Assembly: GCF_003334785.1 (NCBI RefSeq)
Contig: NZ_QOWV01000004.1
Length of the DNA: 64,000 bases
From: Escherichia coli
GTDB lineage: Bacteria; Pseudomonadota; Gammaproteobacteria; Enterobacterales; Enterobacteriaceae
Direction: 5' to 3' (one strand)
The position numbers and the translations under genes are program-made. The notes under the pieces are model-generated. The model was not told the origin of the DNA, ran no database searches, and saw nothing but the letters and a program-made list of their open reading frames with translations. Shown one piece after another: positions 823 through 1,658 of the stretch (position 1 is the stretch's first letter; every line of letters begins with the position of its first letter).

Positions 823-1191
823 GTGTCAGACACACTCCCCGGGACAACGCTTCCCGACGACAATAACGACCGCACCTGGTGGGGACTGCCCTGCACCGTG
901 ACGCCCTGTTTTGGTGCCCGTCTGGTACAGGAAGGCAACCGGTTGCATTACCTTGCCGACCGCGCCGGTATCAGAGGGCGGTTCAGCGACGCGGATTCGT
1001 ACCACCTGGACCAGGCCTTTCCGCTGCTGATGAAACAACTGGAACTCATGCTCACCAGCGGTGAACTGAATCCCCGCCATCAGCATACCGTCACGCTGTA
1101 TGCAAAAGGGCTGACCTGCGAAGCCGACACCCTCGGCAGTTGTGGCTACGTTTATATGGCTGTTTATCCGACGCCCGAAACGAAAAAGTAA
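823..1191 (+). CDS. cbeA: CbeA/YeeU-family type IV antitoxin
   Basis: 122-aa ORF; sequence and position immediately upstream of cbtA-like toxin. Confidence 0.85.
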   Translation: MSDTLPGTTLPDDNNDRTWWGLPCTVTPCFGARLVQEGNRLHYLADRAGIRGRFSDADSYHLDQAFPLLMKQLELMLTSGELNPRHQHTVTLYAKGLTCEADTLGSCGYVYMAVYPTPETKK

Positions 1192-1280
1192 CTCTCCAGA
1201 ATAACCTTCTGCTCCGGCCTGGTGCTTTCACCACGCCACTTTTCCATTTTTCATCTCTGCATATCAGGAAAATCTTCAGT

Positions 1281-1658
1281 ATGAAAACATTACCTGTATT
1301 ACCCGGGCAGGCGGCCAGTTCACGCCCGTCTCCGGTTGAAATCTGGCAGACACTGCTCACCCGACTGCTGGATCAGCACTACGGCCTTACGCTGAATGAC
1401 ACACCGTTCGCTGATGAACGTGTGATTGAGCAGCATATTGAGGCAGGCATTTCACTGTGCGATGCGGTGAACTTTCTCGTTGAAAAATACGCACTGGTAC
1501 GTACCGACCAGCCGGGATTCAGCGCCTGTACCCGTTCTCAGTTAATAAACAGTATTGATATCCTCCGGGCACGCCGGGCAACCGGCCTGATGACACGCGA
1601 CAACTACAGAACGGTAAATAACATTACCCTGGGTAAACATCCGGGGGCGAAACAATGA
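1281..1658 (+). CDS. cbtA: CbtA/YeeV-family type IV toxin (cytoskeleton inhibitor)
   Basis: ATG at 1281 (internal start of the 1140..1658 track ORF), MKTLPVLPGQAASSRPSPVEIWQTLLTRLLDQHYGLTLNDTPFADE...; about 90-bp gap after cbeA as in known modules. Confidence 0.85.
   Translation: MKTLPVLPGQAASSRPSPVEIWQTLLTRLLDQHYGLTLNDTPFADERVIEQHIEAGISLCDAVNFLVEKYALVRTDQPGFSACTRSQLINSIDILRARRATGLMTRDNYRTVNNITLGKHPGAKQ

Follow-up and report, generated by a model that had tools for sequence, protein, structure and literature searches.

Does the gene pair near the end of a genomic island in Escherichia coli represent a working toxin-antitoxin (TA) module, and is it particular to the island that carries it? 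The pair occupies positions 823 to 1658 of a 64,000-nucleotide stretch (64 kb, the window) of contig NZ_QOWV01000004.1 from assembly GCF_003334785.1. A sequence-only reading had described it as an intact CbeA/CbtA type IV TA pair, confined as a copy to this island. Comparison with characterized proteins, other alleles and public genomes indicates that the locus is very probably a functional allele of the E. coli CbeA/CbtA (YeeU/YeeV) type IV module, situated in the terminal gene block of a P4-like island at pheV. The allele is widespread.

Relationship of the pair to K-12 CbeA and CbtA

The antitoxin gene lies directly upstream of the toxin gene, both on the plus strand (Table 1). The toxin matches the CbtA_toxin model over its full length (PF06755, model positions 1-112 of 112; E=4.8e-59), and the antitoxin covers nearly all of the CbeA_antitoxin model (PF06154, positions 2-100 of 101; E=6.4e-55). 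Matches of this extent exclude chance. None of the toxin, antitoxin, DUF987, DUF5983/DUF957 and DUF4942 proteins was assigned a family by NCBIfam, and Pfam was used instead. In alignments with the K-12 paralogues, the toxin shares 97% identity with CbtA (YeeV), 64% with YpjF and 58% with YkfI; for the antitoxin, the figures are 92% with CbeA, 68% with YfjZ and 63% with YafW. Together with the Pfam coverage, the 97% and 92% identities bear out the earlier description of both open reading frames (ORFs) as full length. The same alignment settles the question of subfamily that the sequence-only reading had raised, pointing to CbtA/YeeV and not to YkfI or YpjF. In addition, the N-terminal toxin segment VLPGQAASSR is that of K-12 CbtA and varies among five further E. 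coli alleles (DTHVREVSCC in some of them), which groups the window toxin with K-12 CbtA proper. On these sequence features, the pair is assigned to the CbtA/YeeV subgroup in the strict sense.

The toxin counts 125 amino acids (aa) versus 124 aa for K-12 CbtA, from which it differs by I24T, S27T, Y120H, E122G and an extra Q125, with no other changes. T24 and T27 are the residues present in every other allele aligned, and positions 120-125 fall outside the Pfam domain. R15 and F65 are both kept. In K-12 CbtA, R15C loses the MreB interaction and F65S that with FtsZ, and the protein carrying both mutations is non-toxic (PMC5624674). The check for a truncated or inactivated toxin, named at the outset as the result that would speak against an intact pair, thus came out negative. 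The antitoxin carries 10 substitutions relative to K-12 CbeA; E100, G105 and G108, which differ from K-12, equal the paralogue consensus. Taken over both proteins, the substitutions mostly go back to residues of other alleles or paralogues. The antitoxin sequence also matches the solved YeeU structures 2H28 and 2INW (E~1e-78) and the YfjZ structures 2JN7 and 2EA9 (E~1e-43); no solved structure resembling the toxin by sequence was found.

Existing annotation agrees with these assignments. The toxin protein is identical to RefSeq WP_000854821.1 and the antitoxin to WP_001285610.1 of strain 214-4, and in strains 214-4 and Z1323CEC0007 the same DNA carries the RefSeq labels YeeU-family antitoxin and cbtA. 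A longer toxin ORF with a TTG start (1140-1658) was rejected, as the ATG at 1281 fits K-12 cbtA, position 1 of the Pfam model and the RefSeq annotation.

Compared with the CP4-44 pair of K-12, the locus has the same gene order (yeeS-yeeT-cbeA-cbtA-yeeW), the GTG start of cbeA, a spacer of 88-89 bp, a 4-bp overlap with the next gene, and R15 and F65 in the toxin. The window DNA aligns with CP4-44 yeeT-cbeA-cbtA-yeeW, spacer included, at a mean column identity of 86%, a value in which the unmatched K-12 tail is counted. Unlike the CP4-44 pair, however, the window pair sits in a pheV island. The pairs YkfI/YafW (CP4-6) and YpjF/YfjZ (CP4-57) share the Pfam families, the upstream antirestriction, RadC/JAB and DUF987 genes, the position adjoining the attachment site of the element, the conserved F65 and the FtsZ target (PMC5624674). 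They differ in sequence (58-64% toxin and 63-68% antitoxin identity), in a 20-bp spacer and in C15 in place of R15; YkfI and YpjF are also shorter (109-113 aa), and YafW and YfjZ are without a 14-residue N-terminal extension.

The toxicity, targets and mode of neutralization of the window pair can be inferred from the near-identical K-12 proteins. CbtA binds the FtsZ H6/H7 loop and the MreB double-protofilament face independently, and division and elongation are blocked (PMC5624674). K-12 CbeA is reported to stabilize FtsZ and MreB bundles and not to bind CbtA, the definition of a type IV system (PMC5371832; Masuda 2012 via PMC5624674). By analogy, the window CbtA would engage the same FtsZ loop and, independently of this, the flat double-protofilament face of MreB. 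Its action would then block both division and elongation and give rise to lemon-shaped cells. CbeA would counter the toxin without binding it, by binding and bundling the FtsZ and MreB polymers.

Table 1. Features of the terminal gene block and the island junction, in window coordinates
Feature	Position	Strand	Description
RadC-like JAB-domain gene, 3' part (yeeS/ykfG/lfgB family)	1-435	+	Start left of window; NCBIfam TIGR00608 RadC, E=2e-43; JAB domain-containing protein by annotation of identical DNA
DUF987 gene (yeeT-like)	522-743	+	73 aa; annotated WP_000692350.1; phrog_14887, E=1.5e-36
cbeA/yeeU-family antitoxin gene	823-1191	+	GTG start after GAGGA; 122 aa; Pfam PF06154
cbeA-cbtA spacer	1192-1280	+	89 bp; hairpin, U-rich tract, AGGAA ribosome-binding site ahead of cbtA ATG
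cbtA/yeeV toxin gene	1281-1658	+	ATG start; 125 aa; Pfam PF06755 and K-12 comparison
DUF5983 (YeeW) N-domain fused in frame to DUF957	1655-2077	+	140-aa ORF; 4-bp ATGA overlap with toxin stop
Terminator-like hairpin after DUF957 frame	2105-2131	+	Consensus scan only
DUF4942 gene (Z1226-like, methyltransferase-related)	2162-3004	+	Last island gene; annotated DUF4942
Distal direct repeat (putative attR), presumed tRNA-Phe (pheV) 3' end minus one G	3115-3137	+	TTCGATTCCGAGTCCGGCACCA, 22 nt
pheV-type intrinsic terminator hairpin	3145-3173	+	12-bp stem, then T run; chromosome side of junction; terminator scan

The island end and the spread of the allele

The TA pair lies ~1.5-2.3 kb inside the distal edge of the island, in a block with the order RadC/JAB-DUF987-CbeA-CbtA-DUF5983-DUF957-DUF4942. 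The repeat beyond the last island gene, TTCGATTCCGAGTCCGGCACCA, is taken by us to be the tRNA-Phe 3' end lacking one G. It was recognized by eye; with three mismatches allowed, an ungapped search gave no match because of the 1-base deletion in the repeat. No tRNA gene was found within the 64-kb window, outside which the proximal end of the island lies; the 40 kb retrieved upstream in the nearest complete genome also stop short of that end. After the pheV-type terminator follows yghD on the minus strand, and K-12 has pheV directly ahead of yghD. The repeat, the terminator and yghD, read against the K-12 order, therefore identify the left end of the window as the distal end of a pheV island. Thus, the earlier placement of an intact type IV pair near an island terminus is confirmed, with exact gene coordinates. 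The TA family has been reported near the attachment sites of P4-like elements (PMC5371832).

Searches of the remaining databases added little. PHROGs weakly linked the DUF4942 protein to a family of DNA methyltransferases (E=8e-15) and otherwise returned uninformative matches for the module proteins. PADLOC matched none of the six module proteins to its anti-phage defense models, so a known anti-phage defense system is not supported. Over positions 1-3400, Rfam gave no credible family; the sole match, to the Pseudomonas small RNA P9 (24 bits versus a gathering score of 43), is below threshold, overlaps the tRNA remnant and the terminator, and is probably spurious. By tblastn, no second copy of the module is present within the window.

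The copy had been regarded as specific to this island, and this claim did not hold. Toxin and antitoxin are present in exactly this form on at least 1000 public contigs apiece. Of 5426 complete E. coli genomes, 4977 carry a similar module (4619 with at least 80% query coverage), at a median of 3 places per genome and a maximum of 15. Strain STK78-E has the identical toxin, WP_000854821.1, in an island that adjoins a tRNA-Ser gene and ghrA. In strain 214-4, the same terminal 3.3 kb, with one single nucleotide polymorphism (SNP), ends a pheV island of different cargo (IS66 copies, hha and Ag43). The literature agrees: yeeU/yeeV together with YeeP, YeeS, YeeT, DUF957 and Z1226 have been described in pheV, pheU and selC islands (PMC6174562), and CbtA copy number varies widely across sequence types (PMC10790755). 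The modules of PMC6174562, from Shiga toxin-producing (STEC) and other pathogenic E. coli, carry the YeeP GTPase, Ag43, YeeS, YeeT, YeeU, YeeV, DUF957 and Z1226/DUF4942 at tRNA-island ends and show no difference of substance from the block analyzed here. In view of this distribution, the tRNA-Ser island copy and these reports, the allele is not confined to this island and the finding is not new, as the sequence-only reading itself had said of the family.

The nearest complete genome is that of Z1323CEC0007, which was isolated from a chicken in Korea and with which the window is collinear (4 SNPs in 9.5 kb and 99.98% identity over a further 50 kb). In the region retrieved from that strain upstream of the window's left end (positions 1-43515 of that region), the island carries the locus of enterocyte effacement (LEE), with eae-beta intimin, tir, esc/sep genes, ler and grlRA, along with an efa1/lifA-like remnant, IS256/IS3 and Ag43. 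The LEE in this collinear island suggests that the source of the window is probably an atypical strain resembling enteropathogenic E. coli (EPEC), with LEE at pheV.

Three further observations concern other parts of the window. As annotated in the collinear genome, its core-genome part holds an mqsR/mqsA type II TA pair at ~36748-37441 on the minus strand. LfgB of CP4-57, a paralogue of the RadC/JAB protein, is reported to cleave MqsA (PMC10846083). Within 3823-5268, a deletion with its junction at 3871-3877 joins the last 55 bp of gspL, of the beta type II secretion system (T2SS-beta), to pitB across the 7-bp microhomology CTGTAAC. There, pitB is without ~109 bp of its 3' end, leaving a 481-aa PitB ORF that ends in a foreign tail and is a pitB pseudogene according to RefSeq. 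Relative to K-12 and 214-4, the remainder of the gsp-beta operon is lost, as are pppA, sslE/yghJ, the glc operon and yghO-yghT, and the junction region is common to 47 of the 5426 complete genomes. Finally, the yghA-exbD intergenic region holds two repeat copies of 84-85 bp (19510-19593 and 19622-19706; 96% identical), which are probably repetitive extragenic palindromic (REP) or bacterial interspersed mosaic element (BIME)-type elements.

Expression, the downstream ORF and the spacer

Several points weigh against a functional pair. A promoter scan of the plus strand gave no sigma-70-like site just upstream of cbeA, and no promoter was identified for the pair. Along with the terminator-like hairpin after the DUF957 frame, this suggests that transcription enters from upstream and runs through the block, the pair probably being cotranscribed with the yeeS/yeeT-like genes that precede it. 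In K-12, the operon is not autoregulated by either protein and the antitoxin genes can be deleted (PMC5371832), so expression from the native locus may not suffice for any TA behavior. Family antitoxins also cross-neutralize paralogous toxins (PMC5371832), and the window pair may therefore be functionally redundant; in the closest genome, 7 places match window positions 1-3300, a query wider than the TA pair. In the toxin itself, G122 is absent from the other seven aligned sequences, but it falls outside the Pfam domain.

The low expression and mild deletion phenotypes reported for K-12 (PMC5371832), together with the deletable antitoxins and the lack of autoregulation, would also fit an intact pair that is a silent passenger. 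The terminal block, from DUF905 to DUF4942, would then travel and recombine as a unit, and the pair would have no TA or addiction activity at native expression. The identical 3.3-kb block at the ends of islands with different cargo and different tRNA sites, the median of 3 module copies per genome with up to 15-17, and the lack of matching anti-phage defense models are in line with this explanation. We nevertheless consider it doubtful. The frames of cbeA and cbtA are intact, whereas the adjoining DUF5983 gene has decayed by deletion both here and in K-12, and the mapped functional residues of the toxin are conserved; this suggests selection on the pair itself. A functional CbeA/CbtA allele remains our preferred identification.

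The decayed gene raises a second alternative, in which the DUF5983-family gene would belong to a three-part unit as a second modulator or antitoxin of CbtA. Only its N-domain would remain here, fused to DUF957, and toxin regulation would be altered as a result. Pfam matches DUF5983_N at residues 4-57 only of the 140-aa ORF. In STK78-E, an intact DUF5983 gene (489 bp) is followed by DUF957, relative to which the window is ~275 bp short by alignment. K-12 yeeW, in contrast, is interrupted by a stop codon and has lost a further 93 bp, while the window ORF is open for 140 aa. The YeeW-like gene described earlier as overlapping the toxin stop does so, by the ATGA, but it is a deletion derivative and not an intact DUF5983 gene. 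In all seven alleles examined, the start of the DUF5983 gene overlaps cbtA by 1-4 bp; this fits translational coupling, and the DUF5983-derived ORF of the window is probably coupled to the toxin through its ATGA overlap. In a large survey of E. coli sequence types, CbtA_toxin/DUF5983 recurs as a predicted TA arrangement (PMC10790755). Moreover, the exact fused product is common, occurring on 961 public contigs, among them that of enterotoxigenic E. coli (ETEC) E24377A; some records give it the name 'Aec78'. However, CbeA alone neutralizes CbtA in K-12 (PMC5371832), where yeeW is cut off by a stop codon, and RefSeq treats the fused form as a DUF5983 pseudogene next to a separate DUF957 coding sequence. 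A three-part unit is improbable.

The spacer between the two genes is 89 bp long versus 88 bp in K-12, to which it is ~94% identical (about 5 differences in 89 bp). It is near-invariant among six E. coli alleles and missing from the E2348/69 allele, in which antitoxin and toxin are 46 bp apart. The ykfI/yafW and ypjF/yfjZ spacers of K-12 measure 20 bp (PMC5371832; the loci were also compared directly). Hence, the ~90-bp spacing that had been called usual is correct for this locus and K-12 cbeA-cbtA, but holds for the CbtA/YeeV subgroup only. The spacer RNA folds at -19.2 kcal/mol (z=-2.1), with a hairpin at 1216-1237 (GGCCUGGUG-CUUU-CACCACGCC) followed by the U-rich tract at 1238-1254. This hairpin is invariant in the fetched alleles and thus comes without covariation support. 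An attenuator role for it is speculation: regulation of a kind not yet described, with the U-tract and invariant hairpin setting the antitoxin:toxin ratio or the DUF5983-family gene acting as a functional third component, seems a long shot on these sequence features.

Significance for CbeA/CbtA modules

The identification made here is that of an ordinary, well-characterized gene pair, and it is of little value except for correct annotation: at this island end lies a standard and apparently functional TA pair of the CbtA subgroup. If the spacer were an attenuator or the DUF5983 gene a third component, this would be a type IV pair regulated in a way not yet described. That islands with different tRNA sites and cargo share the allele fits the terminal block as a mobile, recombining backbone module. 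Candidate physiological roles, established for no member of the family, are island maintenance and stress tolerance, to either of which the pair could contribute.
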